Positions 23,193 through 57,161 of a DNA stretch of 64,000 nucleotides are shown piece after piece. The notes below the pieces were generated by a model. It was given only the letters and a program-made list of their open reading frames with translations, did not search any database and was not told where the DNA came from. Position 1 is the stretch's first letter. Each line of letters begins with the position of its first letter. The position numbers were made by a program, and so were the translations under genes. Location: NCBI RefSeq assembly GCF_963921235.1, contig NC_086097.1:118484001-118548000 (forward strand), in the 5' to 3' direction. This stretch comes from Mobula hypostoma (lineage: Eukaryota).

Positions 23193-23871
23193 ATATGCCA
23201 CTGTGAAGTTACACACAGTTATTTTCAGAATATAGAACATTACAGTACACGATTGGACCATCAACCTCCAAAGTTGTGTGGACATTACTCCATCAAGTTA
23301 ACCCTTCTCTCCCACATAGCCCTCCAGTTTTAAATTGTTTACACAGATTGAAGGAAGAAATTCATGTCACCTAGCTATGTATGTGGTACACTTTGTAATA
23401 TGTTAGAAGAACTTTGAGAATAGAATGTTAACATGCCAAGACAACCTGGTTTGCTTTGATTATATAACAGATTAATTCAATGTTACATTAACAGTTATGT
23501 AAGCCTGTGATAATCTGGTACCATGACACTTCGTTGCTGCATGATTAAATATTACTCCTATTGCAGTAAACCTCCATTAATCTGCTGTCCCATTGTTGGA
23601 AATGCAGATTACTTGTTTCTATTTCCTGTAATCTCTTTAAACTTGATGCTGTCCTACTCCCACACTCACTGTGGCCCCGATTCCTTTGCCCCTTTTACAT
23701 TCAGTGCAGCCCCATTTCTGTGTTTCCTTTAAACACAATGAGTTTACAGAAAAGTTTGTGATATCTCTGTGTTAAAAATATCAACTGTAAATGCGTAATA
23801 GGAGGAATAACTAATAGTAACAAAATGTGCTGGTCCATCATGATCAAAGTCCTAAGGGTGCATGATTATTA

Positions 23872-24538
23872 AAGTTCAGAGTTCAAAGTACATTTATTAT
23901 CAAAGCATGTATAGCATACATACTTTGAGATTTGTCTTCTTGTAGGTGGCCATCAAACAAAGAAACGCAATAGAACACACTAAAACACCCCATGTAACAG
24001 TCAGACACAGGATATGCTGAAATACAGAACAAATCATGCAAACAGTAAGAAAAATAAATGGGCCACAGAGTCGCCGAAAGTGATCCAACAGCAACGGAGC
24101 AAGGTAAGTACTGCAGCTGGTCTAGGAGCCCAAAGGCTGCAAGCCATAGCCACCCAGCCAGTTCTGTGCTGCAGCTGGTCCTGGAAACTGACAACTACAG
24201 GCTACAGCCATGGAGCCAGTTTAGACTACGGCCAGTTCAGGAGCCCAGTGGGTGCAAACCAGATCCAGGGAGCCAGTTCTGTGCTGTAGCAACTCCAGGA
24301 GCCCAAAGGCTGCAAGCCACAGCCACGGAGCAAGTTTAGCACTACAGCTGTTCCAGGAAACCGATAGCTAGAGGCCACAGCTATAGAGCCAGTTCAGGGC
24401 TGAGGCGAGTAAGACCTCTCAGAGTAGTGAGTTGAAGACCGGTTCATCCCTCGTCCCTCATCCTTGACTTATAATCTTCTTAATCTGGCTCGGCGCTTAA
24501 ATCAGCTAAACATCAATTCATTTTTCGCTCTTGGACCC
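23872..24538 (-). mobile_element. TTTGAAC-tail dispersed repeat (minus strand) whose interior runs into the satellite
   Basis: Starts AAAGTTCAGAGTTCAAAGTACATTTATTATCAAAG, the reverse complement of the tail at 6598-6628 and 12990-13018; contains a 58-bp VNTR and a satellite-like motif at 24482-24505. Confidence 0.65.
24097..24400. repeat. Degenerate 58-bp minisatellite, ~5.3 copies
   Basis: GAGCCAG/GAGCAAG-like anchors at 24097, 24155, 24213, 24270, 24328, 24386 (spacing 58,58,57,58,58). Confidence 0.85.
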
Positions 24539-27500
24539 GGGCCCTGTCACTTCGATTAGGCCTCATTCCAATCTGGCCCCGTCACTTCAATCAGGCCCCA
24601 TTCCAATCTGGCCCCGTCACTCCGATCAGGAACCATTCTAATCTGGCCCGGTCACTTCCACCACGTCCCATTCCAATCTGGCCCCGTCACTTCGATCAGG
24701 CCCGATTCCAATCTGGCCCCGTCACTTCGATCAGTCCCGATTCCAATCTGGCCCCGCCACTCCGATCAGGGCCCATTCCAATCTGCCCCATCACTTCGAT
24801 CAGGCCCCATTCCAATCTGGCCCGGTCACTTTGATCACGAACCATTCCAATCTGGCCCCGTCACTCCGATCAGGACCCATTCCAATCTGGCCCCTTAACT
24901 TCCATTAGGCCCGATTCCAATCTGGCCCCGTCACTTCGATCAGGCCCGATTCCAATCTGGCCCCATCACTTCAATCAGGCCCAATTCCAATCTGGCCCCG
25001 TCACTTCAATCAGGTCCCATTCCAATCTGGCCCCGTCACTCCGATCAGGCCCCATTCCAATCTGGCCCCGTCATTTCCATTAGGCCCCATTTCAATCTGG
25101 CCCCGTCACTTCGATCAGGCCCCATTCCAGTCTGGCCCCGTAACTTCCATCAGGCCCGATTCCAATCTGGCCCCGTCACTTCCATTAGGCCCCATTCCAA
25201 TCTGGCCCCGTCACTCCGATCAGGACCCATTCCAATCTGGCCCCAGTGCTTCGATCAGGCGCCATTCCAATCTGGCCCCGTCGCTACAATCAGGCCCCAT
25301 TCCAATCTGGCGCTGGCACACCGATCAGGCCCCATTCCAAACTGGCCCCGTCACTTCGATCAGGCCCCATTCCAATCTGGCCCTGGCACTTCGATCAGGC
25401 CCGATTCCAATCTCGCCCCGTCACTTCGATCAGGCCCCATTCCAGTCTGGCCCCGTAACTTCCATCAGGCCCGATTCCAATCTGGCCCCGTAACTTCGAT
25501 CAGGCCCCATTCCAATCTGACCCGTCACTCCGATCAGGTCCCATTCCAATCTGGCCCCGTCACTTCGATCAGGCCCCATTCCAATCTGACCCGTCACACC
25601 GATCAGGTCCCATTCCAATCTGGCCCCGTCACTCCGATCAGGCCCAATTCCAATCTGGCCCCGTCACTTCCATCAGGCCCCATTCCAATCTGGCCCCGTC
25701 ACTCCGATCAGGAACCATTCCAATCTGGCCCCAGCGCTTCGATTTGGCCCCATTCCAATCTGGCCCCGGTACTACGATCAGGCCCGATTCCAATCTGGCC
25801 CCGTCACTTCGATCAGGCCCTTTTCCAATCTGGCCCCATCACTTCGATTATGCCCGATTCCAATCTGGCCCAGTCACTTCGATCAGGCCCCATTCCAATC
25901 TGGCCCCGTAACTCCAATAGGACCCATTCCAATCAGGCCCCGGTGCTTCGATCAGGCCCAATTCCAATCTGGCACCGGCACTCCGATCAGGCCCCATTCC
26001 AATCTGGCCCCTTCACTCTGATCAGGACCCATTCCATCTGGCCCCTTCACTCCGATCAGGGCCCATTCAAATCTGTCCCCGTCACTTCGATCAGGCCCGA
26101 TTCCAATCTGGCCCCGTCACTTCGATCAGGCCCCATTCCAATCTGGCCCGGTCACTTCGATCAGGCCCCATTCCAATCTGGCCCCGTCACACCGATCAGG
26201 ACCCATTCCAATCTGGCCCCGGCGCTTCGATCAGGCTCCATTCCAATCTGGTCCCATCACTCCGATCAGGCCCCATTCCTATCTGGCCCCGGCGCTTCGA
26301 TCAGGCCCGATTCCAATATGGCCCCGTCAGTCCCATCAGGCCCCATTCCAATCTGGCCCCTTAACTTCCATTAGGCCCGATTCCAATCTGGCCCCATCAC
26401 TTCGATCAGGCCGCATTCCACTCTCGCCCCGTCACTTCCATCAGGCCCTGTCACTTTGTCAGGCCGCATTACAATCTGGCCCGGTCACTTTCATCAGGCC
26501 CGATTCCAATGTGGCCTCTTAACTTGCAATAGGCCCGATTGCAATCTGGCCCAGTCACTCCGATCAGGACCCATTCCAATCAGGCCCCGGTGCTTCAATC
26601 AGGCCCAATTCCAATCTGGCACTGTCACTCTGATCAGGCCCCATTCCAATCTGGCACCGTCACTCTGATCAGGCCCCATTCCAATCTGGCCCCGTCACTT
26701 CGATCAGGCTCCATTCCAATATGGCCGCGGCACTTCCATTCGGCCCCATTCCAATCTGGCCCGGTCACTTCGATCAGGCCCCATTCCACTCTAGCCCCGT
26801 CACTTCCATCAGACCGCATTCCAATTTGGCCCGGTCACTGCCATGAGGCCCCATTCCAATCTGGCCCCGGCACTTTGATTTGGCCCCATTCCAATCTGGC
26901 CCCGGCACTACGATCAGGCTCCATTTCAATCTGGCGCCAGCACTCCAATCAGGCCCAATTGCAATCTGACCCCGTCACTTCGATCAGCCCGATTCCAATC
27001 TGGCCCCGTCACTTCGATTAGGCCCAATTCCAATCTGGCCCCGTCACTTCCATTAGGCCCCATTCCAATCTGGCCCCGTCACTTCGATCAGGCCCCATTC
27101 CAATCTGGCCCCGTCACTTCGATCAGGCCCTTTTCCAATCTGGCCCCATCACTTCGATCATGCCCGATTCCAATCTGGCCCAGTCACTACGATCAGGCCC
27201 CATTCCAATCTGGCCCCGTCACTACGATCAGGCCCCATTCCAATCTGGCCCCGTCACTTCCATTAGGCCCCATTCCAATCTGGCCTCGTCACTTCGATCA
27301 GGCCCCATTCCAATCTGGCCCCGTCACTTCGATCAGGCCCTTTTCCAATCTGGCCCCATCACTTCGATCATGCCCGATTCCAATCTGGCCCAGTCACTAC
27401 GATCAGGCCCCATTCCAATCTGGCCCCGTCGCTCCAATCAGGCCCCATTCCAATCTGGCGCTGGCACACCGATCAGGCCCCATTCCAATCTGGCCCCGTC

Positions 27501-30500
27501 ACTCCGATCAGGCCCTATTCCAATCTGGCCCCGGCACTTCGATCAGGCCCAATTCCAATCTGGCCCCATCACTTCGATCATGCCCGATTCCAATCTGGCC
27601 CCGTCACATAAATCAGGTCCCATTTCAATCTGGCCTCGTCACTTCCGTTAGTCCCGATTCCAATCTGACCCCGTCACTTCGGTCAGGCCCCGTTGCAGTC
27701 TGGCTCCGTTACGTCCATCAGGCCCGATTCCAATCTGGCCCCGTCACTTCGATCAGGCCCCATTCCAACCTGACCCGTCACTCCGATGAGGCCCCATTCC
27801 AATCTGGCCCCGTCACTTCCATTCGGCCCTATTCCAATTTGGCCCGGTCACTTCAATTAGGCCCCCCATACCAATCTGGCCCCGTCAGTCCGATCAGGAC
27901 CCATTCCACTCTAGCCCCGTCACTTCAATCAGGCCCCATTCCAATCTGGCCCGGTCACTCCGATCAGGACCCATGCCAATCAGGCCCCGGTGCTTCGATC
28001 AGGCCCAATTCCAATCTGGCCCCGTCACTCCGATCAGGGCCCATTCCAATCTGGCCCGGTCACTTCGATCAGGGCCCATTCCAATCTTGCCCCGTCACTC
28101 TGATCAGGCCCCATTCCAATCTGGCCCCGGCACTTCCATCAGGCCCCATTCCAATCTGGCCCCGTCACTCCGATCAGGAACCATTCCAATCTGGCCCCGG
28201 CGCTTTGATTTGGCCCCATTCCAATCTGGCCCCGGCACTACGATCAGGCCCCATTCCAATCTGGCGCCAGCACTCCGATCAGGCCCGATTGCAATCTGGC
28301 CCCGTCACTTCAATCAGGCCCGATTCCAATCTGGCCCCGTCACTTCGATCAGGCCCAATTCCAATCTGGCCCCATCACTTCGATCAGGCCCGATTCCAAT
28401 CTGGCCCCGTCACTACGATCAGGCCCCATTCCAATCTGGCCCCGTCACTACGATCAGGCCCCATTCCAATCTGGCCCCGTCACTTCGATCAGGCCCCATT
28501 CCAATCTGGCCCGGTCACTTCGATCAGGCCCCATTCCAATCTGGCCCCATCACTCCGATCAGGCCCCATTCCAATCTGGCCCGGTCACTTCGATCAGGCC
28601 CCATTCCAATCTGGCCCCGTCACTTCGATCAGGCCCCATTCCAATCTGGCCCCGTCACTCCGATCAGGCCCCATTCCAATCTGGCCCCGTCACTTCCATC
28701 AGGCCCCATTCCAATTTGGCCCGGTCACTTCAATTAGGCCCATACCAATCTGGCCCCGTCACTTCGATCAGGCCCCATTCCAATCTGGCCCCATCACTTC
28801 CATCAGGCCCCATTCCAATCTGGCCCCGTCACTTCGATCAGGCCCCATTCCAATCTGGCCCCGTCACTTCGATCAGGCCCCATTCCAATCTGGCCCCGTC
28901 ACTCCGATCAGGGCCCATTCCAATCTGGCCCGGTCACTTCGATCAGGCACCATTCCAATCTGGCCCGGTCACTTCGATCAGGCCCCATTCCAATCTGGTC
29001 CCATCACTCCGATCAGGCCCCATTCCAATCTGGCCCCGGTGCTTCGATCAGGCCCCATTCCAATCTGGCCCCGTCACTCCGATCAGGCCCCATTCCAATC
29101 TGGCCCCGTCACTCCGATCAGGCCCCATTCCAATCTGGCCCCGTCACATCCATCAGGCCCCATTCCAATTTGGCCCGGTCACTTCAATTAGGCCCATACC
29201 AATCTGGCCCCGTCAGTCCGATCAGGACCCATTCCAATCTGGCCCCGTCACTTGGATCAGGCCCCATTCCAATCTGGCCCCGTCACTTCCATCAGGCCCC
29301 ATTCCAATCTGGCCCCGTCACTTCGATCAGGCCCCATTCCAATCTGGCCCCGTCACTTCGATCAGGCCCCATTCCAATCTGGCCCCGTCACTTCGATCAG
29401 GCCCGATTCCAATCTGGCCCCGTCACTTCGATCAGGCCCCATTCCAATCTGGCCCCGTCACTTCGATCAGGCCCTTTTCCAATCTGGCCCCATCACTTCG
29501 ATCATGCCCGATTCCAATCTGGCCCAGTCACTACGATCAGGCCCCATTCCAATCTGGCCCCGTCACTACGATCAGGCCCCATTCCAATCTGGCCCCGTCA
29601 CTTCCATTAGGCCCCATTCCAATCTGGCCCCGTCACTTCGATCAGGCCCCATTCCAATCTGGCCCCGTCACTTCCATCAGGCCCGATTCCAATCTGGCCC
29701 AGTCACTTCGATCAGGCCCCATTCCAATCTGGCCCCGTCACTCCGATCAGGCCCCATTCCAATCTGGCCCCGTCACTTCGATCAGGCCCCATTCCAATCT
29801 GGCCCCGTCACTTCCATCAGGCCCCATTCCAATCTGGCCCCGTCACTTCGATCAGGCCCCATTCCAATCTGGCCCCGTCACTTCCATCAGGCCCCATTCC
29901 AATCTGGCCCCGTCACTTCCATCAGGCCCCATTCCAATCTGGCCCCGTCACTTCCATCAGGCCCCATTCCAATCTGGCCCCGTCACTTCGATCAGGCCCC
30001 ATTCCAATCTGGCCCCGTCACTCCGATCAGGCCCCATTCCAATCTGGCCCCGTCACTCCGATCAGGCCCCATTCCAATCTGGCCCCGTCACTTCCATTAG
30101 GCCCGATTCAAATCTGGCCCCGTCACTTCGATCAGGCCCCATTCCAGTCTGGCCCAATCACTACCATCAGGCCCGATTCCAATCTGGCCCAGTTACTTCG
30201 ATCAGCCCCCATTCCAATCTGGCCGGGTCACTCCGATCAGGGCCCATTCCAATCTGGCCCGGTCACTTCGATCAGGCCCCATTCCAATCTGGCCCCGTCA
30301 CTTCCAATCTGGCCCCGTCACTTCGATCAGGCCCAATTCCAATCTGGCCCCGTCACTCCGATCAGGGCCCATTCCAATCTGGCCCGGTCACTTCGATCAG
30401 GCACCATTCCAATCTGGCCCGGTCACTTCGATCAGGCCCCATTCCAATCTAGTCCCATCACTCCGATCAGGCCCCATTCCTGTCTGGCCCCGGCGCTTCG

Positions 30501-33500
30501 ATCAGGCCCGATTCCAATATGGCCCCGTCACTCCGATCAGGCCCCATTCCAATCTGGCCCAGTCACATCCATCAGGCCCCATTCCAATTTGGCCCGGTCA
30601 CTTCAATTAGGCCCATACCAATCTGGCCCCGTCAGTCCGATCAGGACCCATTCCACTCTAGCCCCGTCACTTGGTCAGGCCCCATTCCAATCTGGCTCGG
30701 TCACTTCCATCAGGACCCATTCCACTCTAGCCCCGTCACTTTTTCAGGCCCCGTCACTTTGTCAGGCCCCATTCCAATCTGGACCGGTCACTTCCATCAG
30801 GCCCCATTCCAATCTGGCCCCGTCACTCCGATCAGGAACCATTCCAATCTGGCCCCGGCGCTTCGATTTGGCCCCATTCCAATCTGGCCCCGGTACTACG
30901 ATCAGGCCCCATTCCAATCTGGCGCCAGCACTCCGATCAGGCCCGATTGCAATCTGGCCCCGTCACTTCAATCAGGCCCGATTCCAATCTGGCCCCGTCA
31001 CTTCGATCAGGCCCTTTTCCAATCTGGCCCCATCACTTCGATCATGCCCGATTCCAATCTGGCCCAGTCACTTCGATCAGGCCCCATTCCAATCTGACCC
31101 GTCACTCAGATCAGGCCCCATTCCAATCTGGCCCCGTCACTTCGATCAGGACCCATTCCAATCTGACCCGTCACTTCGATCAGGAACCATTCGAATCAGG
31201 CCCCGGTGCTTCGATCAGGCCCAATTCCAATCTGGCACCGGCACTCCGATCAGGCCCCATTCCAATCTGGCCCCTTCACTCCGATGAGGACCCATTCCAT
31301 CTGGCCCCTTCACTCCGATCAGGGCCCATTCAAATCTGTCCCCGTCACTTCGATCAGGCCCGATTCCAATCTGGCCCCGTCACTTCGATCAGGCCCCATT
31401 CCAATCTGGCCCGGTCACTTCGATCAGGCCCCATTCCAATCTGGCCCCGTCACACCGATCAGGACCCATTCCAATCTGGCCCCGGCGCTTCGATCAGGCT
31501 CCATTCCAATCTGGTCCCATCACTCCGATCAGGCCCCATTCCTATCTGGCCCCGGCGCTTCGATCAGGCCCGATTCCAATATGGCCCCGTCAGTCCCATC
31601 AGGCCCCATTCCAATCTGGCCCCTTAACTTCCATTAGGCCCGATTCCAATCTGGCCCCGTCACTTCAATCAGGCCGCATTCCACTCTTCACTTCCATCAG
31701 GCCCTGTCACTTTGTCAGGCCCCATTACAATCTGGCCCGGTCACTTCCATCAGGCCCGATTCCAATGTGGCCCCTTAACTTCCAATAGGCCCGATTCCAA
31801 TCTGGCCCAGTCACTCCGATCAGGACCCATTCCAATCAGGCCCCGGTGCTTCAATCAGGCCCAATTCCAATCTGGCACTGTCACTCTGATCAGGCCCCAT
31901 TCCAATCTGGCCCCGTCACTTCGATCAGGCTCCATTCCAATTTGGCCCGGTCACTTCTATCAGGCCCATTCCAATCTGGCCCCGGCACTTCCATCAGGCC
32001 CCATTACAATCTGGCCCCGGCACTACAATCAGGCTCCATTTCAATCTGGCGCCAGCACTCCAATCAGGCCCAATTGCAATCTGGCCCCGTCACTTCGATC
32101 AGCCCGATTCCAATCTGGCCCCGTCACTTCGATTAGGCCCAATTCCAATCTGGCCCCGTCACTTCAATCAGGTCCCATTCCAATCTGACCCGTCAGTCCG
32201 ATCAGGCCCCTTTCCAATCTGGCCCCGTCACTACGATCAGGCCCCATTCCAATCTGGCCCCGTCACTCCCATCAGGCCCCATTCCAATCTGACCCGTCAC
32301 TCCGATCAGGCCCCTTTCCAATCTGGCCCCGTCACTACGATTAGGCCCATACCAATCTGGCCCCGTCAGTCCGATCAGGAACTATTCCACTCTAGCCCTG
32401 TCACTTCTTTCAGGCCCCGTCACTTTGTCAGGCCCCATTCCAATCTGGATCGGTCACTTCCATAAGGCCCAATTCCAATCTGGCACCGGCACTTCCATCA
32501 GGCCCCATTCCAATCTGGCCCCGTCACTCCGATCAGGAACCATTCCAATCTGGCCCCGGCGCTTCGATCAGGCCCCATTCCAATCTGGCCCCGGTACTAC
32601 GATCAGGCCCCATTCCAATCTGGCGCCAGCACTCCGATCAGGCCCGATTGCAATCTGGCCCCGTCACTCCGATCAGGACCCATTCCAATCTGACCCGTCA
32701 CTTCGATCAGGACCCATGCCAATCAGGCCCCGGTGCTTCGATCAGGCCCAATTCCAATCTGGCCCCGTCACTCCGATCAGGCCCCATTCCAATCTGGCCC
32801 CGTCACTTCGATCAGGCCCCATTCCAATCTGGCCCGGTCACTTCGATCAGGCCCCATTCCAATCTGGCCCCGTCACTTCGATCAGGCCCAATTCCAATCT
32901 GGCCCCGTCACTTCGATCAGGCCCCATTCCAATCTGGCCCCGTCACTTCGATCAGGCCCCATTCCAATCTGGCCCCGTCACTTCGATCAGGCCCCATTCC
33001 AATCTGGCCCCGTCACTTCCATCAGGCCCCATTCCAATCTGGCCCCGTCACTTCGATCAGGCCCCATTCCAATCTGGCCCCGGCACTTCGATCAGGCCCG
33101 ATTCCAATCTGGCCCCGTCACTTCGATCATGCCCGATTCCAATCTGGCCCCGTCACTTCGATCAGGCCCCATTCCAATCTGGCCCCGTCACTTCAATCAG
33201 GCCCCATTCCAATCTGGCCCTGTCACTCCGATCAGGCCCCATTCCAATCTGGCCCCGTCACTACGATCAGGCCCCATTCCAATCTGGCCCCGTCACTTCC
33301 ATCAGGCCCCATTCCAATCTGACCCGTCACTCCGATCAGGCCCCTTTCCAATCTGGCCCCGTCACTACGATCAGGCCCCATTCCAATCTGGCCCCGTCAC
33401 TTCCATCAGGCCCCATTCCAATCTGACTTGTCACTCCGATCAGGCCCCATTCCTATCTGGCCCCGGTGTTTCGATCAGGCCCCATTCCAAACTGGCCCGG

Positions 33501-36500
33501 TCACTTCGATCAGGCCCCATTCCAATCTGGCCCCGTCACTCCGATCAGGCCCCATTCCAATCTGGCCCCGTCACTACGATCAGGCCCCATTCCAATCTGG
33601 CCCCGTCACTTCCATTCGGCCCCATTCCAATTTGGCCCGGTCACTTCAATTAGGCCCATACCAATCTGGCCCTGTCAGTCCGATCAGGACCCATTCCAAT
33701 CTGGCCCCATCACTTCGATCATGCCCGATTCCAATCTGGCCCCGTCAGTCCGATCAGGACCCATTCCACTCTAGCCACGTCACTTCTTTCAGGCCCCGTC
33801 ACTTTGTCAGGCCCCATACCAATCTGGCCCGGTCACTTCCATCAGGCCCGATTCCAATCTGGCCCCGGCACTTCCATCAGGCCCCATTCCAATCTGGCCC
33901 CTTCACTCCGATCAGGGCCCATTCAAATCTGGCCCCGTCACTTCGATCAGGCCCCATTCCAATCTGGCCCGGTCACTTCTATCAGGCCCATTCCAATCTG
34001 GCCCCGGCACTTCCATCAGGCCCCATTACAATCTGGCCCGGTCACTTCTATCAGGCCCATTCCAATCTGGCCCCGTCACTTCGATCAGGCCCCATTCCAA
34101 TCTGGCCCCGGCACTACGATCAGGCTCCATTTCAATCTGGCGCCAGCACTCCAATCAGGCCCGATTGCAATCTGGCCCCGTCACTTCGATCAGCCCGATT
34201 CCAATCTGGCCCCGTCACTTCGATTAGGCCCAATTCCAATCTGGCCCCGTCACTTCAATCAGGTCCCATTCCAATCTGACCTGTCACTCCGATCAGGCCC
34301 CTTTCCAATCTGGCCCCGTCACTACGATCAGGCCCCATTCCAATCTGGCCCCGTCACTTCCATCAGGCCCCATTCCAATCTGGCCCCGTCACTCCGATCA
34401 GGCCCCATTCCAATCTGGCCCCGTCACTACGATCAGGCCCCATTCCAATCTGGCCCCGTCACTTCGATCAGGCCCCATTCCAATCTGGCCCCGTCACTCC
34501 GATCAGGGCCCATTCCAATCTGGCCCGGTCACTTCGATCAGGCCCCATTCCAATCTGGCCCCGTCACTTCGATCAGGCCCCATTCCAATCTGGCCCCGTC
34601 ACTTCCATCAGGTCCCATTCCAATCTGACCCGTCACTCCGATCAGGCCCCTTTCCAATCTGGCCCCGTCACTACGATCAGGCCCCATTCCAATCTGGCCC
34701 CGTCACTTCCATCAGGCCCCATTCCAATCTGACCCGTCACTCCGATCAGGCCCCATTCCAATCTGGCCCCGGTCACTTCGATCAGGCCCCATTCCAATCT
34801 GGCCCGGTCACTTCGATCAGGCCCCATTCCAATCTGGCCCCGTCACTCCGATCAGGCCCCATTCCAATCTGGCCCCGTCACTACGATCAGGCCCCATTCC
34901 AATCTGGCCCCGTCACTTCCATCAGGCCCCATTCCAATCTGGCCCGGTCACTTCAATCAGGCCCATTCCAATCTGGCCCCGTCACTCCGATCAGGACCCA
35001 TTCCAATCTGGCCCCATCACTTCGATCAGGCCCGATTCCAATCTGGCCCCGTCAGTCCGATCAGGACCCATTCCACTCTAGCCCCGTCACTTCTTTCAGG
35101 CCCCGTCACTTTGTCAGGCCCCATTCCAATCTGGCCCGGTCACTTCCATCAGGCCACATTCCAATCTGGCCCCGTCACTTCCATCAGGCCCCATTCCAAT
35201 CTGGCCCCGTCACTTCGATCAGGCCCTTTTCCAATCTGGCCCCATCACTTCGATCATGCCCGATTCCAATCTGGCCCAGTCACTACGATCAGGCCCCATT
35301 CCAATCTGGCCCCGTCACTACGATCAGGCCCCATTCCAATCTGGCCCCGTCACTTCCATTAGGCCCCATTCCAATCTCGCCCCGTCACTTCGATCAGGCC
35401 CCATTCCAGTCTGGCCCCGTAACTTCCATCAGGCCCGATTCCAATCTGGCCCAGTCACTTCGATCAGGCCCCATTCCAATCTGACCCGTCACTCCGATCA
35501 GGTCCCATTCCAATCTGGCCCCGTCACTCCGATCAGGCCCAATTCCAATCTGGCCCCGTCACTTCCATTAGGCCCGATTCAAATCTGGCCCCGTCACTTC
35601 GATCAGGCCCCATTCCAGTCTGGCCCAATCACTTCCATCAGGCCCGATTCCAATCTGGCCCAGTTACTTCGATCAGCCCCCATTCCAATCTGGCCGGGTC
35701 ACTTCAATCAGGCCCCATTCCAATCTGGCCCGGTCACTCCGATCAGGCCCCATTCCAATCTGGCCCGGTCACTTCGATCAGGCCCCATTCCAATCTGGTC
35801 CCATCACTCCGATCAGGGCCCATTCCATTCTGGCCCCGTCTCTTCGATCAGGCCCGATTCCAATCTGGCCCCGTCACTCCGATCAGGCCCCATTCCAATC
35901 TGGCCCAGTCACATCCATCAGGCCCCATTCCAATTTGGCCCGGTCACTTCAATTAGGCCCATACCAATCTGGCCCCGTCAGTCCGATCAGGACCCATTCC
36001 AATCTGGCCCCATCACTTCGATCAGGCCCGATTCCAATCTGGCCCCGTCACTCCGATCAGGCCCCATTCCAATCTGGCCCCATCACTTCGATCATGCCCG
36101 ATTCCAATCTGGCCCCGTCACATACATCAGGCCCCATTCCAATCTGGCCCGGTCACTTCCATCAGGACCCATTCCAATCTGTCCCCGTCACTACGATCAG
36201 GCTGTGTTCCAATCTGGTCCCATCACTCCGATCAGGCCCCATTCCTGTCTGGCCCCGGCGCTTCGATCAGGCCCGATTCCAATATGGCCCCGTCACTCCG
36301 ATCAGGCCCCATTCCAATCTGGCCCAGTCACATCCATCAGGCCCCATTCCAATTTGGCCCGGTCACTTCAATTAGGCCCATACCAATCTGGCCCCGTCAG
36401 TCCGATCAGGACCCATTCCACTCTAGCCCCGTCACTTCTTTCAGGCCCCGTCACTTTGTCAGGCCCCATTCCAATCTGGCCCGGTCACTTCCATCAGGCC

Positions 36501-45500: not shown

Positions 45501-48500
45501 TTCAATCAGGCCCCATTCCAATCTGGCCCCGGCGCTTCGATCAGGCTCCATTGCAATCTGGTCCCATCACTCCGATCTGGCCCCATTCGAATCTGGCCCA
45601 GCATTGAAATCAGGCCCCATTCGAACCTGCCCCCTTCACTTCAATCAGGTCCCATTCCAATCTGGCCGTGTCACTCTGATCAAGCCGCATTCCAATCTGG
45701 CCCCGTCACTCCGATCAGGTCCCATTCCAATCTGGCCCCCTCACTTCCATTAGGCCCGATTCCAATCTGGCCCCGTCACTTCAATCAGGTCCCATTCCAA
45801 TCTGACCCATCACTCCGAAAAGGCCCCATTCCAATCTGGCCCCGTCACTCCGATCAGGCCCCATTCCAATCTGGCCCCGTCACTTCCATCAGGCCCCATC
45901 CCAATCTGGCCCCGTCACTCTGATCAGTCCCCATTCCAATCTGGCCCCGGCACCTCGAGCAGGCCCGATTCCAATCTGGCCCTGTCACTCCGATCAGGCC
46001 CAATTCCAATCTGGCCCCGTCACTTCCATTAGGCCCGATTCCAATCTGGCCCCGGTGCTTCGATCAGGCTCCATTCCAATCTGGCCCCATCACTTCCATC
46101 AGGCCCGATTCCAATCTGGCCCAGTCACTTCGATCAGGCCCCATTCCAATCTGGCCCGGTCACTCCAAACAGGACCCATTCCAATCAGGCCCCGGTGCTT
46201 CGATCAGGCCCAATTCCAATCTAGCCCCGTCACTCCGATCAGGCCCCATTCCAATCTGGCCCGGGCACTCCGATCAGGCCTCATTCCAATCTGGCCCCGT
46301 CACTACGATCAGGCTCTATTCCAATCGGGCCTCGTCACTTCCATTAGGCCCCATTCCAAACTGGCCCCGTCACTTCGATCAGGCCCCATTCCAGTCTGGC
46401 CCCGTAACTTCCAGCAGGCCCGATTCCAATCTGACCCAGTCACTTTGATCAGGCCCCATTCCAATCTGGCCCCATCATTTCAATCAGGTCCCATTCTATT
46501 CTGACCCGTCACTCCGATCAGACCCCATTCCAATCTGGCCCCGTCACTCCGATCAGGCCCAATTCCAATCTGGCTCCGTCACTTCCATTAGGACCGATTC
46601 AAATTTAGCCCCGTCACTCCGATCAGGCCCCATTCCAATCTGGCCCCATCACTCCGATCAGTCCCCATTCAAATCTGACCCCGTCACTCTGATGAAGACC
46701 CATTCCAATCTGGCCTCGGCGCTTCGATCAGGCTCCATTCCAATCTGGTTCCATCACTCCGATCATTCCCCATTCCTATCTGGCCCCGGCGCTTCGATCA
46801 GGCCCGATTCCAATCTGGCCCCTTAACTTCCAATTGGCCCGATTCCAATCTGGCCCCTTAACTTCCAATTGGCCCGATTCCAATCTGGCCCCGTCACTTC
46901 GATCACGCCCCATTCCAATCTGGCCCCGTCACAACGATTAGGCCCCATTCCAATCTGGCCTCGTCACTTCGTTCAGGCCCCATTCCAGTCTGGCCCCGTA
47001 ACTTCCATCAGGCCCGATTCCAATCTGGCCCAGTCACATTGATCAGGCCCCATTCCAATCTGGCCCCGTCATTTCAATCAGGTCCCGTTCTATTCTGACC
47101 CGTCATTCCGATCAGGCCCCATTCCAATCTGGGCCTTCACTCCGATCAGGGCCCATTCCAATCTGGCACTATCACTTCGATCAGGCCCGATTCCAATCTG
47201 GCCCTGGCACTCCGATCAGGGCCCATTGCAATCTGGCCCCATCACTTCGATCAGGTCCCATTCCAATCTGGCCCGGTCACTTCGATCAGGCCCCATTCCA
47301 ATCTGGCCCCGTCACTCCTATCAGGACCCATTCCAATCTGGCCCCGGTGCTTCGATCAGGCCCGATTCCAATCTGGCACCGTCAGTCCGATCAGGCCCCA
47401 TTCCAGTCTGGCCCCTTAACTTCCATTAGGCCCGATTCCAATCTGGCCCCGTCACTTCGATCATGCCCAATTCCAATCTGGCCCAGTTACTCCGATCAGG
47501 ACCCATTCCAATCTGGACCCGGCGGTTCGATTAGGCTCCATTCCAATCTGGTCCCATCACTCCGATCAGGCCACATTCCTATCTGTCCCCGGCGCTTCGA
47601 TCAGGCCCGATTCCAATCTGGCCCCGTCACTTCCATCAGGTCCCATTCCAATCTGACCCGTCACTCCGATCAGGCCCCTTTCCTATCTGGCCCCGGAGCT
47701 TCGATCAGGCCCCATTCCAATCTGGCCCCGTCACTCCGATCAGGACCCATTCCAATCTGGCCCCGGTGCTTCGATCAGGCTCCATTCCAATCTGGCCCCG
47801 TCACTCCGATCAGGCCCAATTCCAATCTGGCCCCGTCACTTCCATGAGGACCGATTCAAATTTGGCCCCGTCACTTCGATCAGGCCCCATTCCAGTCTGG
47901 CCTAATCACTTCCATCAGGCCCGATTCCAATCTGGCCCAGTTACTTCGATCAGGCCCCATTCCAATCTGGCCGGGTCACTTCAATCAGGCCCCATTCCAA
48001 CATGCCCGGTCAATCCGATCAGGACCCATTCCCATCAGGCCCCGGTGCTTCGATCAGGCCCCAATCCAATCTGGCCCCGTCACTCCGATCAGGCCCAATT
48101 CCAATCTGGCCCCGTCACTTCCATTAGGCCCGATTCCAATCTGGCCCCGTCACTCCGATCAGGCCCAATTCCAATCTGGCCCCGTCAATTCCATTAGGCC
48201 CGATTCAAATCTGGCCCAATCACTTCGATCAGGGCCCATTCCAATCTGGCCCCATCACTTCGATCAGGCCCCATTCCAATCTGGCCCTGTCGCTTCGATG
48301 AGGCCCCATTCCAATCTGGCCTCGTCACTCTGATCAGGACCCATTCCAATCTGGCCCCGGCGCTTCGATCAGGCTCCATTCCAATCTGGTCCCATCACTC
48401 CGATCAGGCCCCATTCGAATCTGGCCCCGGCATTGCAATCAGGCCCCATTCGAATCTGCCCCCTTCACTTCAATCAGGTCCCATTCCAATCTGGCCGCGT

Positions 48501-51500
48501 CACTCTGATCAAGCCGCATTCCGATCTGGCCCCGTCACTCTGATCAGGTCCCATTCCAATCTGGCCCCCTCACTTCAATTAGGCCCATACCAATTTGGCC
48601 CCATCACTCCGATCAGGACACATTCCAATCTTGCCACAGTGCTTCTATCAGCCGCCATTCCATTCTGGCCCCGGCACTCCGATCAGGCCCCATTCCAATC
48701 TGGCCCCGGCACTCCGATCAGGCCCCATTCAAATCTGGCCCCAGCACTCCGATCAGGCCCAATCCCAATCTGGCCCCATCACTCGGATCAGTCCCCATTC
48801 CAATCTGGCCCCGGCACTTCGAGCAGGCCCGATTCCAATCTGACCCCGTCACTCCAATCAGGCCCAATTCCAATCTGGCCCCGTCACTTCCATTAGGCCC
48901 GATTCCAATCTGGCCCCGTCACTTTGATCAGGCCCCATTCCAGTCTGGCCCCATCACTTCCATCAGGCCCGATTCCAATCTGGCCCAGTCACTTCGATCA
49001 GGCCCCATTCCAATTTGGCCGGGTCACTTCAATCAGGCCCCATTCCAATCTGGCCCCGGCGCTTCGATCAGGCTCCATTCCAATCTGGTCCCATCGCTCC
49101 GATCAGGCCCCATTCGAATCTGGCCCCAGCATTGCAATCAGGCCCCAGTCGAACCTGCCCCCTTCACTTCAATCAGGTCCCATTCCAATCTGGCCGCGTC
49201 ACTCTGATCAAGCCGCATTCCAATCTGGCCCCGTCACTCCGATCAGGTCCCATTCCAATCTGGCCCCCTCACTTCCATTAGGCCCGATTCCAATCTGGCC
49301 CCGTCACTTCAATCAGGTCCCATTCCAATCTGACCCATCACTCCGAAAAGGCCCCATTCCAATCTGGCCCCGTCACTCCGATCAGGCCCCATTCCAATCT
49401 GGCCCCGTCACTTCCATCAGGCCCCATCCCAATCTGGCCCCGTCACTCTGATCAGTCCCCATTCCAATCTGGCCCCAGCACTTCGAGCAGGCCCGATTCC
49501 AATCTGGCCCCGTCACTCCGATCAGGTCCAATTCCAATCTGGCCCCGTCACTTCCATTAGGCCCGATTCCAATCTGGCCCCGGTGCTTCGATCAGGCTCC
49601 ATTCCAATCTGGCCCCATCACTTCCATCAGGCCCGATTCCAATCTGGCCCAGTCACTTCGATCAGGCCCCATTCCAATTTGGCCGGGTCACTTCAATCAG
49701 GCCCCATTCCAATCTGGCCCGGTCACTCCGATCAGGACCCATGCCAATCAGGCCCCGGTGCTTCGATCAGGCCCAATTCCAATCTAGCCCCGTCACTCCG
49801 ATCAGGCCCCATTCCAATCTGGCCCGGGCACTCCGATCAGGCCTCATTCCAATCTGGCCCCGTCACTACGATCAGGCTCTATTCCAATCGGGCCTCGTCA
49901 CTTCCATTAGGCCCCATTCCAATCTGGCCCCGTCACTTCGATCAGGCCCCATTCCAGTCTGGCCCCGTAACTTCCAGCAGGCCCGATTCCAATCTGACCC
50001 AGTCACTTTGATCACGCCCCATTCCAATCTGGCCCCATCATTTCAATCAGGTCCCATTCTATTCTGACCCGTCACTCCGATCAGACCCCATTCAAATTTA
50101 GCCCCGTCACTCCGATCAGGCCCCATTCCAATCTGGCCCCATCACTCCGATCAGTCCCCATTCCAATCTGACCCCGTCACTCCGATCAAGACCCATTCCA
50201 ATCTGGCCTCGGCGCTTCGATCAGGCTCCATTCCAATCTGGTTCCATCACTCCGATCATTCCCCATTCCTATCTGGCCCCGGCGCTTCGATCAGGCCCGA
50301 TTCCAATCTGGCCCCTTAACTTCCAATTGGCCCGATTCCAATCTGGCCCCGTCACTTCGATCAGGCCCCATTCCAATCTGGCCCCGTCACAACGATTAGG
50401 CCCCATTCCAATCTGGCCTCGTCACTTCGTTCAGGCCCCATTCCAGTCTGGCCCCGTAACTTCCATCAGGCCCGATTCCAATCTGGCCCAGTCACATTGA
50501 TCAGGCCCCATTCCAATCTGGCCCCGTCATTTCAATCAGGTCCCGTTCTATTCTGACCCGTCATTCCGATCAGGCCCCATTCCAATCTGGGCCTTCACTC
50601 CGATCAGGGCCCATTCCAATCTGGCTCTATCACTTCGATCAGGCCCGATTCCAATCTGGCCCTGGCACTCCGATCAGGGCCCATTGCAATCTGGCCCCAT
50701 CACTTCGATCAGGTCCCATTCCAATCTGGCCCCGTCACTCCTATCAGGACCCATTCCAATCTGGCCCCGGTGCTTCGATCAGGCCCGATTCCAATCTGGC
50801 ACCGTTAGTCCGATCAGGCCCCATTCCAGTCTGGCCCCTTAACTTCCATTAGGCCCGATTCCAATCTGGCCCCGTCACTTCGATCATGCCCAATTCCAAT
50901 CTGGCCCAGTTACTCCGATCAGGACCCATTCCAATCTGGACCCGGCGGTTCGATTAGGCTCCATTCCAATCTGGTCCCATCATTCCGATCAGGCCACATT
51001 CCTATCTGTCCCCGGCGCTTCGATCAGGCCCGATTCCAATCTGGCCCCGTCACTTCCATCAGGTCCCATTCCAATCTGACCCGTCACTCCGATCAGGCCC
51101 CATTCCTATCTGGCCCCGGAGCTTCGATCAGGCCCCATTCCAATCTGGCCCCGTCACTCTGATCAGGACCCATTCCAATCTGGCCCCGGTGCTTCGATCA
51201 GGCTCCATTCCAATCTGGCCCCGTCACTCCGATCAGGCCCAATTCCAATCTGGTCCCGTCACTTCCATGAGGACCGATTCAAATTTGGCCCCGTCACTTC
51301 GATCAGGCCCCATTCCAGTCTGGCCTAATCACTTCCATCAGGCCCGATTCCAATCTGGCCCAGTTACTTCGATCAGGCCCCATTCCAATCTGGCCGGGTC
51401 ACTTCAATCAGGCCCCATTCCAATCTGGCCCGGTCACTCCGATCAGGACCCATTCCCATCAGGCCCCGGTGCTTCGATCAGGCCCAATTCCAATCTGACA

Positions 51501-54500
51501 CCGGGACTCCGATCAGGCCCCATTCCAATCTGGCACCGGCACTCCGATCAGGCCCCATTCCAATCTGGCCCTGTCACTTCGATGAGGCCCCATTCCAGTC
51601 TGGCACCGTCACTTCCATCAGGCTCCATTCCAATCTGACCCCGTCACTACGATCAGGCCTGATTCCAATCTGGCTCTGTCACTTCCATCAGGCCCCATTC
51701 CAGTCTGGCCCCTGCACTTCCATCAGGCTCCACTCCAATCTGGCCCCGGCACTCCGATCAGGCCCCATTCAAATCTGGCCGCGGCATTGCAATCAGGCCC
51801 CATTCCAATCTGGCCCCGGCATTGCAATCAGGCCCCATTCCAATCTGGCCCCATCACTTCAATCAAGTCCCATTCCAATCTGGCCGCGTCACTCTGATCA
51901 AGCCCCATTCCAATCTGGCCCCGTCACTCCGATCAGGTTCCATTCCAATCTGGCCCCCTCACTTCCATTAGGCCCGATTCCAATCTGGCCCGTCATTTCA
52001 ATCAGGTCCCATTCTATTCTGATCCGTCACTCCGATCAGGCCCCATTCCAATCTGCCCCGTCACTCCGATCAGGCCCAATTCAAATCTGGCCCCGGCACT
52101 CCGATCTGGCCCCATTCCAATCTGGTCCCATCACTCCGATCAGTCCCCATTCCTATCTGGCCCCGTCACTTCAATCAGGCCCGATTCCAATCTGGCCCCG
52201 TCACTTCGATCAGGACCAATTCCACTCTGGCCCAGTCACTTCAATCAGGTCCCATTCCAATCTGACCCGTCACTCCGATCAGGCCCCATTCCAATCTGGC
52301 CCCGTCACTCCGATCAGGCCCAATTCCAATCTGGCCCCGTCACTTCCATTAGGCCCGATTCCAATCTGGCCCCGTCACTCCGATCAGGCCCAATTCCAAT
52401 CTAGCCCTGTCACTTGCATTAGGCCCGATTCAAATCTGTCCCAATCACTTCGATCAGGCCCCATTCCAATCTGGCCCCATCACTTCGATCAGGCCCCATT
52501 CCAATCTGACCCTGTCACTTCGATGAGGCCCCATTCCAATCTGGCCCCGTCACTCCGATCAGGACCCATTCCAATCTGGCCCCGGCGCTTCGATCAGGCT
52601 CCATTCCAATCTGGTCCCATCACTCTGATCAGGCCCCATTCGAATCTGGCCCCGGCATTGCAATCAGGCCCCATTCGAATCTGCCCCCTTCACTTCAATC
52701 AGGTCCCATTCCAATCTGGCCGCGTCACTCTGATCAAGCCACATTCCAATCTGCCCCGTCACTCCGATCAGATCCCATTCCAATCTGGCCCCCTCACTTC
52801 CATTAGGCCCGATTCCAATCTGGCCCCGTCACTTCAATCAGGTCCCATTCCAATCTGACCCATCACTCCGAAAAGGCCCCATTCCAATCTGGCCCCGTCA
52901 CTCCGATCAGGCCCCATTCCAATCTGGCCCCGTCACTTCCGTCAGGCCCCATTCCAATCTGGCCCCGTCACTTCGATCAGGCACCATTCCAGTTTCGCCC
53001 CGTAACTTCCATCAGGCCCGAACAGTCACTTCGATCAGGCCCCATTCCAATCTGACCCGGTCTCTTCCATCAGGCCCCATTCCGATATGGCCCCTTAACT
53101 TCCATTAGGCCCGATTCCAATCTGGCCCCGTCACTTCAATCAGGCCCCATTCCAATCTGGCCCGGTCTCTCCGATCAGGACCCATTCCAATCTGGCCCCG
53201 TCACTCCGATCAGGACCCATTCCAATCTGGCCCCAGTGCTTCGATCAGGCCCCATTCCACTCTAGCCCCGTCACTTCCATCAGGCCCCATCACTTTGTCA
53301 GGCCCCATTCCAATCTGGCCCGGGTGCTTCAATCAGGACCCATTCCAATCTGGTGGCCCCGTCACTTCAATCATGCCACATTCCAATCTGGCCCCGCCAC
53401 TTTGATTAGGCCCCATTCCAATTTGGCCCCGGCACTCCGATCAGGCCCAATTCCAATCTGGCCCCGGCACTCCGATCAGGCCCTATTCCAATCTGCCCCC
53501 TTCACTTCAATCAGGTCCCATTCCAATCTGGCCGCGTCACTCTGATGAAGCCGCATTCCAATCTGGCCCCGTCACTCCGATCAGGTCCCATTCCAATCTG
53601 GTCCCCTCACTTCCATTAGGCCCGATTCCAATCTTGCCCCGTCACTTCAATCAGGTCCCATTCCAATCTGACCCATCACTCCGAAAAGGCCCCATTCCAA
53701 TCTGGCCCCGTCACTCCGATCAGGCCCCATTCTAATCTGGCCCCGTCACTTCCATCAGGCCCCATTCCAATCTGGCCCCGTCACTTCGATCAGGCACCAT
53801 TGCAGTTTCGCCCCGTAACTTCCATCAGGCCCGAACAGTCACTTCGATCAGGCCCCATTCCAATCTGACCCGGTCTCTTCCATCAGGCCCCATTCCAATA
53901 TGGCCCCGGCACTTCCATTAGGCCCCATTCCAATCTGGCCCGGTCTCTTCGATCAGGCCCCATTCCACTCTAGCCCCGTCACTTCCATCTGGCCCCATCA
54001 CTTTGTCAGGCCCCATTCCAATCTGGCCCCATCATTCCGATCAGGCCCCATCCCAATCTGGCCCAGTCACTTCCATCAGGCCCCATTCCAATTTGGCCCG
54101 GTCACTTCAATTAGGCCCATACCAATCTGACCCCATCACTCCGATCAGGACCCATTCCAATCTGGCCCCGGCACTCCGATCAGGCCCCATCCCAATCTGG
54201 CCCCGTCACTCTGATCAGTCCCCATTCCAATCTGGCCCCGGCACTCCGATCAGGCCCCATCCCAATCTGGCCCCGTCACTCTGATCAGTCCCCATTCCAA
54301 TCTGGCCCCGGCACTTCGAGCAGGCCCGATTCCAATCTGGCCCCGTCACTCCGATCAGGCCCAATTCCAATCTGGCCCCGTCACTTCCATTAGGCCCGAT
54401 TCCAATCTGGCCCCGTCACTTCAATCAGGCCCCATTCCAATCTGGCCCGGTCTCTCCGATCAGGACCCATTCCAATCTGGCCCCGTCACTCCGATCAGGA

Positions 54501-57161
54501 CCCATTCCAATCTGGCCCCAGTGCTTCGATCAGGCCCCATTCCACTCTAGCCCCGTCACTTCCATCACTCCCCATCACTTTGTCAGGCCCCATTCCAATC
54601 TGGCCCGGGCGCTTCGATCAGGACCCATTCCAATCTGGTGGCCCCGTTACTTCAATCATGCCACATTCCAATCTGGCCCCAGCACTTTGATTAGGCCCCA
54701 TTCCAATTTGGCCCCGTCACTTCCATCAGGCCCGATTCCAATCTGGTCCCGTCACTCCGATCAGGCCCCATTCCAATCCGGCCCTGTCACTTCCATCAGG
54801 CCTGATTCCAATGTGATCCCGTCACTTCGATCAGGCCCCATTCCAGTCTGGCCCCGTCACTCCGATCAGGACCCATTCCAATCTGGCCCCAGTGCTTCGA
54901 TCAGGCCCCATTCCACTCTAGCCCCGTCACTTCCATCACTCCCCATCACTTTGTCAGGCCCCATTCCAATCTGGCCCGGGCGCTTCGATCAGGACCCATT
55001 CCAATCTGGTGGCCCCGTTACTTCAATCATGCCACATTCCAATCTGGCCCCAGCACTTTGATTAGGCCCCATTCCAATTTGGCCCCGTCACTTCCATCAG
55101 GCCCGATTCCAATCTGGTCCCGTCACTCCGATCAGGCCCCATTCCAATCCGGCCCTGTCACTTCCATCAGGCCTGATTCCAATGTGATCCCGTCACTTCG
55201 ATCAGGCCCCATTCCAGTCTGGCCCGGTCACTTCCATCAGGCTCCATTCCAATCTGGTCCCATCACACCGATCAGGCCCCATTCCTATCTGGCCCTGGCA
55301 TTTCGATCAGGCCCGATTCCAATCTGGCCCCGTCACTCCGATCAGGCCCCATTCCACTCCAGCTCCGTCACTTCCGTCAGGCCCCGTCAGTTTGTCAGGC
55401 CCCATTCCAGTCTGGCCCGGTCACTTCCATCAGGCCCCATTCCAATCTGGCCCCGGCACTTCCATCAGGCCCCATTCCAATTTGGCCCCGTCCCTCCAAT
55501 CAGGACCCATTCCACTCTGGCCCGGGCGCTTCGATCAGGCCCCATTCCAATTTGGTGGCCCCGTCACTCCGATCAGGCCCCATTCCAATCTGGCCCCATC
55601 ACTTCCATCAGGCCCCATTCCAATCTGGCCGCGTCACTCCGATCAGGCCCCATTCCAATCTGGCCCCAGTACTTCGATCAGTCCCCATTCCAATCTGGCC
55701 CCGTCACTTCGATCAGGCCCCATTCCAATCTGGCCCTGGTACTTCGATCAGGCCCGATTCCAATCTGGCCCCATCACTTCGATCATGCGCAATTCCAATC
55801 TTGCCCCGTCACTACGTACAGGACCCATTCCAATCTGGCCCCGGCGCTTCGATCAGGCTCCATTCCAATCTGGTCCCATCACACCGATCAGGCCCGATTC
55901 CAATCTGGCCCCATCACTCCGATCAGGCTCCATTCCAATCTGGCCCCGGCACTTTGATTAAGCCCCATTACAATCTGGCCCCGGCACTCCAATCAGGCCC
56001 CATTCCAATCTGGCCCCGTCACTCCGATCAGGCCCGATTCCAATCTGGCCCCATCACTTCCATTAGGCCCCATTCCAGTCTGTCCCCGTATCTTCCATCA
56101 GGCCCGATTCCAATCTGGCCCAGTCACTTCAATCAGGCCCCATTCCAATCTGGCCCGGTCACTTCAATAAGACCCATTCCAATCTGGCCCCGTCACTCCG
56201 ATCAGGACCCATTCCAATCTGGCCCCAATGCTTCTATCAGGCGCCCTTCCAATCTGTCCCTGTCACTCCAATCAGGCCCCATTCCAATCTGGCTCCGGCA
56301 CTCCGATCAGGCCCCATTCAAATCTGGCCCCGTCACTCCGATCAGGCCTCGTTCCAATCTGGCCCCGGCACTTCGATCAGGCCCGATCCCAATCTGGCCC
56401 CATCACTTCGATGATGCCCGATTCCAATCTGGCCCCGTCACTTCGATCAGGGCCCATTCCAATCTGGTCCCAGCACTCCAATCAGGCCCCATTCCAATCT
56501 GGCCCCGTCACTTCGATCAGGCCCCATTCCAATCTGGCCCCGTCACTTCGATCAGGCCCCATTCCAATCTGACCTGTCACTCCGATCAGGCCCCATTCCA
56601 ATCTGGCCCCGTCACTTCGATCAGGCCCCATTCCAATCTGGCCCCGTCACTCCGATCAGGCCCCATTCTAATATGTCCCCGGCACTTCGATCAGGCCCAG
56701 TTCCAATCTAGCGCGTTACTACAATCAGGTTCCATTACAATCTGACCCATCACTCCAATCAGGCTCCATTTCAATCTGGCCCCGTCACTCCGATCAGGCC
56801 CCATTCCGTTCTGGCCCCATCACTTCCATCAGGCCCCATTCCAATCTGGCCCCGTCACTCCGATCAGGCCCCATTCCAATCTGGCCCGAGTACTTCGATC
56901 AGCCCCGATTCCAGTCTGGCCCCGTCACTCCGATCAGGCCCCATTCCAATCTGGCCCCGTCACTCCGATCAGGCCCCATTCCAGTCTGGCCCCGTCACTT
57001 CCATCAGGCCCGATTCCAATCTGGCCCCGTCACTTCAACCAGGTCCCATTCCAATCTGGCCCCGTCACTTCCATTAGGCCCGATTCCAATCTGGCCCCGT
57101 CACTTCGATTAGGCCCCATTCCAGTCTGGCCCCGTCAGTTCCATCAGTCCCGATTCCAATC
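24539..57161. repeat. ~32.6-kb tandem array of a 35-bp monomer GGCCCCATTCCAATCT-GGCCCCGTCACTTCGATCA (~930 copies)
   Basis: Directly visible; single orientation; no foreign insertion seen; variant monomers form repeated higher-order blocks. Confidence 0.99.

Follow-up and report, generated by a model that had tools for sequence, protein, structure and literature searches.

A 32.6-kb array of 35-bp units in a ray genome, probably a giant locus-restricted minisatellite

Introduction

Giant locus-restricted arrays of short units are an ordinary, well-described class of tandem repeat. Minisatellites, by the definition given in PMC5615363, have units of 10-100 bp arranged head to tail, and the human VNTR arrays tabulated by Warburton et al. 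2008 (PMC2588610, Table 1) include a 34-bp unit spanning 47.8 kb at 13q34, a 38-bp unit spanning 49.8 kb at 19p12 and a 40-bp unit with higher-order structure spanning 52.9 kb at 1p36.32. The array described here resembles these tabulated human VNTRs in having a unit close to 34-40 bp, an extent of tens of kb and an apparently locus-specific distribution, and also in that several of them show higher-order structure and lie outside catalogued repeat classes; the human arrays belong to another lineage, however, and the likeness is one of description, not of sequence. Human HSAT4, listed in the same table with a 35-bp unit and arrays of 26-531 kb, is a multi-locus human satellite, and equal unit length alone implies no kinship. 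Megasatellites and macrosatellites, such as the 3.3-kb repeat at 4q35 and DXZ4, are locus-restricted, as this array seems to be, and like it GC-rich and tens of kb long, but the term is used in that paper for units of up to several kb, as against 35 bp here, and the label "megasatellite" suggested for this array by the first-pass annotation therefore names the wrong class: a 35-bp unit makes a minisatellite or VNTR. As to origins, at least 23% of human minisatellites and satellites are reported to be TE-derived and to have grown by local duplication (PMC3389668). We found no satellite catalogue for rays in the literature searched. In this report we examined a window of 64 kb, the whole stretch of DNA analysed, which contains the array with both its edges. 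Our main reading, to which we assign a probability of about 0.75, is that the array is a giant minisatellite (VNTR) at a single locus or a few loci, near-neutral and non-coding.

Results

The array is real, and wrap-around alignment places it as follows.

24540-57161 (+): giant array of 943 head-to-tail 35-bp units, 32.6 kb

Both edges are sharp. The unit count rises from the earlier estimate of about 930. In the same alignment 815 of the 943 units measure 35 bp and 92 measure 34 bp, all in a single orientation (no inverted units, and no reverse-complement 15-mers in common). Each unit consists of a 19-bp and a 16-bp subunit, both opened by GGCCCC, and a perfect example lies at 25344-25378. 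Mean identity to the commonest unit is 89.9%, mean difference between pairs of units 17.4%, and 465 distinct unit types occur. G+C content is 57.9% (C 40.5, G 17.4), against 33-43% in those bins of the flanks that lie clear of the LTR element at 1-3 kb. The array holds 573 GATC and 1388 GGCC sites, the latter amounting to about 1.5 per unit and not the two per unit once proposed. A 20-mer of the monomer, sought on either strand in published papers, found no match, and a 30-mer sought in metagenome contigs found 0 matches; the monomer is apparently uncatalogued. An Rfam search of the 64-kb window gave 0 matches. No stable DNA hairpin was detected (z 0.12 for four units), and no canonical G-quadruplex was found on the G-rich strand with loops of up to 7 nt, while 251 motifs appear when loops of up to 15 nt are allowed; a G4 mechanism for the array is unsupported.

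Could the array be a coding VNTR, such as a mucin-like exon? The consensus lacks a stop on the plus strand, and 44 stop-free frames of at least 200 aa, almost all of them plus-strand frames and the longest of 770 aa, overlap the region. Yet stops are spread evenly over the three plus frames (97/99/84, none depleted), 35 is not divisible by 3, Pfam gives the longest frame only a sub-threshold match of 24 residues, and no host-gene domain appears among 149 flank frames scanned, making a coding role extremely improbable.

The array is heterogeneous, with three sequence domains and irregular higher-order block duplications. Blocks were detected in unit space, a megablast self-search having given no rows.

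24540-39058 (+): left domain, a patchwork of 0.3-1.6 kb blocks in common
29696-30080 and 32761-33075 (+): runs of near-consensus units within the left domain
41855: seventh exact copy of the diagnostic cassette, which carries a 19-bp half-unit; the other six lie in the left domain
39059-41319 (+): block of 32 units (1.1 kb) duplicated in tandem, copies 1.5% diverged
44546-51391 (+): largest higher-order duplication, 44546-47968 versus 48073-51391
54479-55220 (+): block of 11 units (371 bp) duplicated exactly and in tandem, 0 differences

The largest duplication, of up to 3.4 kb, aligns 94 units with 5 unit gaps at 1.0% divergence and occurs in two copies only. Blocks less than 4.1% diverged take in 782 of the 943 units, and among 5-unit windows 36% can be paired with another that differs by 2% or less, compared with 0% once unit order is shuffled. 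Units of 18-21 bp record half-unit losses at GGCCCC motifs. Variant units are thus interspersed and blocks duplicated, as in giant minisatellites. A regular higher-order array of the alpha-satellite type was considered and rejected, a fixed n-mer period repeated many times being absent: the best unit offset (101) yields only 8.9% near-identical pairs, and no period dominates. Nor did we see a symmetric layered expansion, with old layers outside and a left edge like the right; the first and last 60-unit bins have 1 rare unit type in common.

The first-pass annotation had named expansion during assembly as what would undo its account, and this is not borne out by the public contigs. The exact 371-bp duplication is either a very recent event or an assembly stutter, but the 465 unit types, the lack of any exact repeat of 500 bp, duplicated blocks that differ by 0.6-1.8% with unit-sized gaps, and a read-derived depth at or above expectation make it very improbable that a short repeat was artificially expanded. 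The data lean the other way. The contig carrying the cassette stands at 24-28x single-copy depth, whereas the assembled array predicts about 8. This excess of about threefold suggests that an allele is longer, that sequence was collapsed or that there is a second locus, and makes the assembled array an incomplete account. It is possible, though we do not favour it, that length and inner order are partly wrong, with a left domain both collapsed and consensus-polished and a true array about 2-3 times longer. Besides the cassette depth, this would fit the near-consensus runs of 11 and 9 units (0.0004 runs of at least 8 expected by chance) and the finding that runs whose flank contigs match perfectly hold only 0.37-0.40 of the sampled array words. 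Against it, rare variants are lost when contigs are built, no exact repeat reaches 500 bp, which would let long reads resolve the array, and the depth is accounted for just as well by a second, longer allele or by another individual. Loss of block-specific variants, used as a test for a polishing mosaic, amounts to 14-35% in all eight regions, beyond the near-consensus runs too, and does not discriminate. Array length probably varies between alleles.

Genome-wide amounts were estimated from summed contig depths, which are not copy numbers. On this measure the repeat amounts to roughly 0.6 to 6 array-equivalents in the window's species (organism A): 0.6-0.8 of the unitig expectation for one array, and at most 4.6-5.9 arrays if nothing was overcounted. 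This favours the earlier suggestion that the array is locus-specific, and the array seems confined to one or a few places. Unlikely is the alternative that it belongs to a larger satellite family with many loci, perhaps in heterochromatin or at centromeres, which some library types under-sample and of which the window would show just a small part. Run X5 of a second species, organism B, gives 14-104 array-equivalents, and the cassette excess in A could be read in the same way. Runs X1, X2 and X7, however, are concordant at about 0.6-9 array-equivalents, so that depth in three of the four runs argues against a Mb-scale heterochromatic or centromeric satellite. Moreover, all three A variant motifs tested occur in this array, one with four copies showing a depth of 4.8x single copy, and the X2/X1 depth ratio of the monomer (0.92-1.09) lies nearer that of the local flank (about 0.8) than the median of dispersed repeats (1.35), which is a soft hint. 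Relative to element bins, monomer depth in X5 is about 9x that in X7, from the same B sample, and this 9-fold gap counts against locus restriction; GATC sites stand at 17.6 per kb in the array versus 2.5 per kb in the flanks, and our guess is that a restriction-based library would inflate such an array.

Organism B also bears on age. One of its contigs (X5 record 18) covers 23302-24592 and so crosses the same left junction; over 1293 bases it shows 53 differences and 2 gaps, a flank divergence of about 4%. The orthologous site shows that junction and the first 1.5 units only. Two flank matches to contigs of organism A, of 594 and 625 bases, are free of differences. Tandem arrangement of the unit at this site predates the split between A and B. 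The content is another matter: only the present sequence is young, and most blocks are younger than the split. Run X7 has a summed monomer depth 1.1-1.2x that of A, with element bins at 1.0, but holds 0.07 of the sampled array words as against 0.37-0.40 in A; the one B variant motif tested is absent from the window. That X7 leaves part of the unique flank uncovered carries no evidential weight. The first-pass annotation proposed a recently expanded array or nascent family, free of insertions since it is new. The youth of most blocks and the absence of insertions would suit this, but the array is not nascent, because B shares the left junction and first 1.5 units with a comparable amount of the repeat in X7; a 17% difference between units and their 465 types also speak against a recent birth, which we regard as improbable. 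The shark mutation rate in PMC10587355 is given per generation.

The left edge of the array adjoins a retroelement relic, whose strand was inferred from the position of its tail.

23871-24539 (-): retroelement-like relic, multi-copy and non-autonomous, adjoining the left edge
23871-23913: very high-copy tail of the relic, presumably Rex1/Babar-type
24088-24402: internal repeats of about 58/116 bp
24472-24526: multi-copy segment
24482-24505 (+): 25-bp look-alike of the monomer junction, within the multi-copy segment and 58 bases before the array
57212-57802 (-): fragment of a LINE 3' end, to the right of the array and 86% similar to a copy at 6292-6365

Positions 24479 and 24516 are covered by 48-65 contigs, and in other copies the multi-copy segment is joined to the tail (joint 23910-24472). 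At 25 columns the look-alike is the top profile match over the two flank strands together (21.9 bits, the next at 15.9), but with 20, 30 and 35 columns it belongs to sets of 15, 7 and 25 peaks that score as high or higher. By plain alignment it reaches a p of 0.03 against shuffles, and as high a score occurs in 26 of 888 control windows. An nhmmer search of the flanks with the monomer reported nothing under E 5.8 and did not pick up the look-alike, and BLAST of the monomer against the flanks gave no matches. Among those listed, other copies of the element cease aligning at 24513-24526, before the first monomer, and no resumption of the element is visible right of the array. The LINE fragment there is of the same family and orientation as the left tail and shows no similarity to the monomer; a right-flank peptide, which we take to be Rex1/Babar, has no Pfam match and falls only in unnamed atlas clusters.

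Discussion

As judged from sequence, the look-alike is a candidate seed homologue with modest support, and a transposon seed for the array is likely, because the array adjoins a multi-copy relic that carries this 25-bp resemblance. The closest parallel is with the SINE-derived satellites (sSats) of squamates described in PMC10702118, which have up to about 1000 units and an element extending from one end only; this array, too, is contiguous with a multi-copy element, at its left end. In the sSats of that paper the unit clearly comes from a known SINE, whereas here the resemblance to the element is limited to 25 bp with about five differences. A TE seed is also a common origin of the human minisatellites treated in PMC3389668, and such a derivation is likely here. 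The first step may have been a GC-rich segment of a non-autonomous retroelement bearing two GGCCCC motifs 16-19 bp apart, which slippage or misaligned repair would have duplicated into the 35-bp unit; that unit was in tandem before A and B split. We place low odds on a fuller version, in which a GC-rich stretch of a non-autonomous ray retroelement gave rise to the array on the spot, the array kept its address across the split while its variants were replaced, and in which X5, if unbiased, would mean an approximately tenfold growth or spread in B.

The block pattern would reflect out-of-register exchange and conversion between sister or homologous copies, copying 5-100 units at a time across offsets of about 1-8 kb, deleting half-units at GGCCCC motifs and replacing variant content within each lineage. 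No foreign insertion was detected by wrap-around alignment (the longest stretch called non-monomer, 12 bases near 31685, proved on reading to be a truncated monomer), while Pfam matches and self-matches give a count of at least 16 copies or pieces of elements in the 31.4 kb of flank, which upholds the first-pass observation of an insertion-free array between flanks with several elements per 10 kb. Set against the two young elements in the flanks, this lack is unremarkable because the array rewrites itself and has few AT-rich target motifs. The bulk of its present sequence would be younger than nearly all flank elements, the flanks are 10-60 times richer in AT-rich endonuclease targets, and deletion within the array would remove the occasional insertion. 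Of the proposal that the array purges insertions by unequal exchange, turnover by unequal exchange or block copying stands, and active purging is unneeded to explain the data. CpG transitions occur at 3.5x the rate of non-CpG C/G transitions (29 versus 42 events, p 8e-7), and the array may be methylated in the germ line.

No function of the array is indicated by its sequence. Its value is mostly that of a resource: it is a marker, probably variable in length, whose two junctions are resolved and which has an orthologous counterpart in a second species, so that it can be used for measuring tandem-array turnover in a slowly evolving lineage. If the transposon seed were confirmed, it would be a further example of a recognised way in which satellites arise; and if X5 is unbiased, the step from a single-locus VNTR to a major satellite would have been caught between two close relatives.

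Results

The tandem repeat array extends from 24540 to 57161 with a 35-bp period in Tandem Repeats Finder, which bears out the position assigned to it by the first-pass annotation. Wrap-around alignment resolves 943 units, of which 815 measure 35 bp and 92 measure 34 bp, with a mean identity of 89.9% to the commonest unit. These comprise 465 unit types that differ pairwise by 17.4% on average, and no inverted units were found in the array. The 35-bp unit is composed of a 19-bp and a 16-bp subunit, both beginning GGCCCC, and a set of 18–21 bp units has lost one subunit at this motif. The array is also free of insertions, as had been claimed, since a truncated monomer accounts for the sole long stretch that looks like an insert (12 bases near 31685). 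Its G+C content is 57.9%, with a marked strand skew (C 40.5 versus G 17.4). Stops are few on the plus strand, an effect of the consensus, and their even spread among the frames (97/99/84) rules out a coding array.

The order of the units is far from random. Five-unit windows with a partner within 2% account for 36% in the array versus 0% after shuffling, and 782 of the 943 units fall inside blocks of <4.1% divergence. The largest duplications measure 3.4 kb (1.0% divergence), 1.6 kb (1.8%) and 1.1 kb (1.5%), together with an exact 371-bp pair; shared 45-mers delimit left, middle and right domains, and no fixed higher-order period was found in the array. This block pattern matches that expected of unequal exchange and conversion, which we infer to be the mechanism. 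Among private changes, CpG transitions occur at 3.5 times the rate of other C/G transitions (29 versus 42 events, p = 8e-7), an excess that would be consistent with germ-line methylation.

The flanks are rich in transposons, with at least 16 element copies in 31.4 kb by our own count from Pfam hits and self-matches. The searches name Pfam domains only; the family labels CR1, Gypsy and Rex1/Babar are those we presume to apply. Besides numerous fragments, the main elements are as follows.

1-3130 (frames 2-3016), minus strand: young LTR retrotransposon whose gag-like (DUF7041) and pol frames are open, extending past the window start
7.4-10.2 kb: broken LINE
14032-18548: second LTR element; its 758-bp LTRs are 90.9% identical, and its pol is broken and apparently internally deleted, the Pfam matches to pol being integrase pieces only
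19455-23190: young, nearly intact LINE with a GDSL-esterase frame followed by an endonuclease-RT frame (20048-23098, 1017 codons without stops)

An element of ~815 bp with 200-bp inverted ends (93%) lies inside a LINE at 8880-9694, and its core is 92% like 11908-12190. A 40-bp direct repeat (57212-57251 and 57342-57381, 90%) is found right beside the array, within a LINE 3' fragment.

At its left edge, the array adjoins a 670-bp relic (23871-24539) of a multi-copy, non-autonomous retroelement-like element, which has a very high-copy tail, its own degenerate 58/116-bp tandem repeat (24088-24402, 5.4 copies) and a multi-copy segment at 24472-24526. In other copies of the element this segment is directly joined to the tail, and internal deletions bring the tail to differing points; among the matches listed, other copies end their alignment at 24513-24526. 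Within the segment, 24482-24505 is like the junction of the monomer; its columns 8 and 10 hold the G,G pair found together in 78 array units versus 16 expected. In a profile of 25 columns this stretch scores 21.9 bits versus 15.9 for the next peak, the best on both strands of the flanks with every rotation allowed, whereas at 20, 30 and 35 columns it is one among 15, 7 and 25 peaks, respectively. Plain alignment to the monomer gives p = 0.03, and nhmmer did not report the stretch as a monomer match. No monomer similarity was found in the right flank, where the LINE 3' fragment shares its family and orientation with the left tail. We consider the odds slightly better than even that the array was seeded by a transposon, the adjoining retroelement relic.

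Eight of 14 listed public sequencing runs contain part of 24400-34000, four from each of two sources, organisms A and B (one sample each), and the share of words from this interval is 0.37–0.40 in A and 0.06–0.20 in B. The left junction was compared in four of these eight runs. The A contigs show 0 differences from the flank over 594 and 625 bases at a depth of 10–14; this identifies A as the species of the window; it may also be the source sample, and would then not be an independent one. A contig from B (run X5, record 18) spans 23302-24592, its 1293 bases showing 53 differences and 2 gaps, and runs through unique flank, the left relic and 1.5 units. An organism that is ~4% diverged thus shares the site at which the array begins, with those 1.5 units seen directly there. 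Monomer depth in another B run (X7) is 1.1–1.2 times that in an A run (X1), with equal element bins; the three A variant motifs tested all occur in the window array, and the one B variant motif tested is missing from the window even allowing 2 mismatches. Between A and B, the amount of repeat looks conserved, but the variants are not.

Because summed contig depth is not copy number, we give the amount as a bracket, in multiples of the 32.6-kb window array. Measured against unitigs simulated from the window array alone, X1, X2 (also from A) and X7 hold 0.6, 0.8 and 1.2 arrays; assuming no overcount, they hold 4.6, 5.9 and 8.8, the X7 baseline of 8 being our estimate from adjacent contigs. These brackets fit a single locus or a small number of loci. 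A variant with four copies in the middle and right domains is present at 4.8 times single-copy depth, as the array predicts. However, two observations complicate the picture. First, the contig of the 19-bp cassette, a diagnostic cassette that includes a 19-bp half-unit and has its exact copies mostly in the left domain, reaches 24–28 times single-copy depth, where the window array predicts about 8. This excess could come from a longer allele, from collapse of the left domain or from a second locus; in a test for polishing mosaics, the loss of block-specific variants was 14–35% in all eight regions. Second, relative to element bins, monomer depth over 24523-24644 is ~9 times higher in X5 than in X7, although both runs come from one sample. 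The X5 excess could be an effect of a restriction-based library, as GATC occurs 17.6 times per kb in the array versus 2.5 in the flanks; either library bias or real under-sampling may lie behind the gap. An array inflated by assembly, the possibility that the first-pass annotation named as a refutation, finds no sign in its favor, the longest exact repeat being <500 bp.

Discussion

While the original observation is confirmed, its interpretation as a recently expanded or insertion-purging array, perhaps a megasatellite or nascent satellite family, is upheld only in part. The array is probably a giant, locus-restricted minisatellite. Minisatellite units are defined as 10–100 bp (PMC5615363), and the term megasatellite covers units as long as several kb (PMC2588610). 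Human single-locus VNTRs are described with units of 34, 38 and 40 bp in arrays of 48–53 kb, some with higher-order structure (Warburton et al., PMC2588610). Squamate SINE-derived satellites of up to 1000 units carry element sequence at one end (PMC10702118), and the TE-derived share of human mini/satellites is put at ≥23% (PMC3389668). The accessible parts of a shark genome paper (PMC11406177) and of the main text of a mobulid genome preprint (10.64898/2026.10.27.761883) contain no description of the monomer. A monomer 20-mer had no match on either strand in the literature searched by sequence, and a 30-mer had 0 matches in metagenome contigs.

The lack of insertions is significant when all flank elements are considered (Poisson probability 3e-5 for 10 elements), but not when compared with the two elements that have intact frames (0.125); for five elements the probability is 0.006. 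LINE endonucleases favor AT-rich targets, and TTTT, AAAA and TTAA occur 0.28, 0.12 and 0.64 times per kb in the array versus 6.7, 7.0 and 6.2 in the flanks. Most of the sequence now in the array was copied after A and B split (4%). Young content and poor targets suffice to account for the lack of insertions; active purging, as first proposed, is possible but not required. The position of the array is old, its content young.
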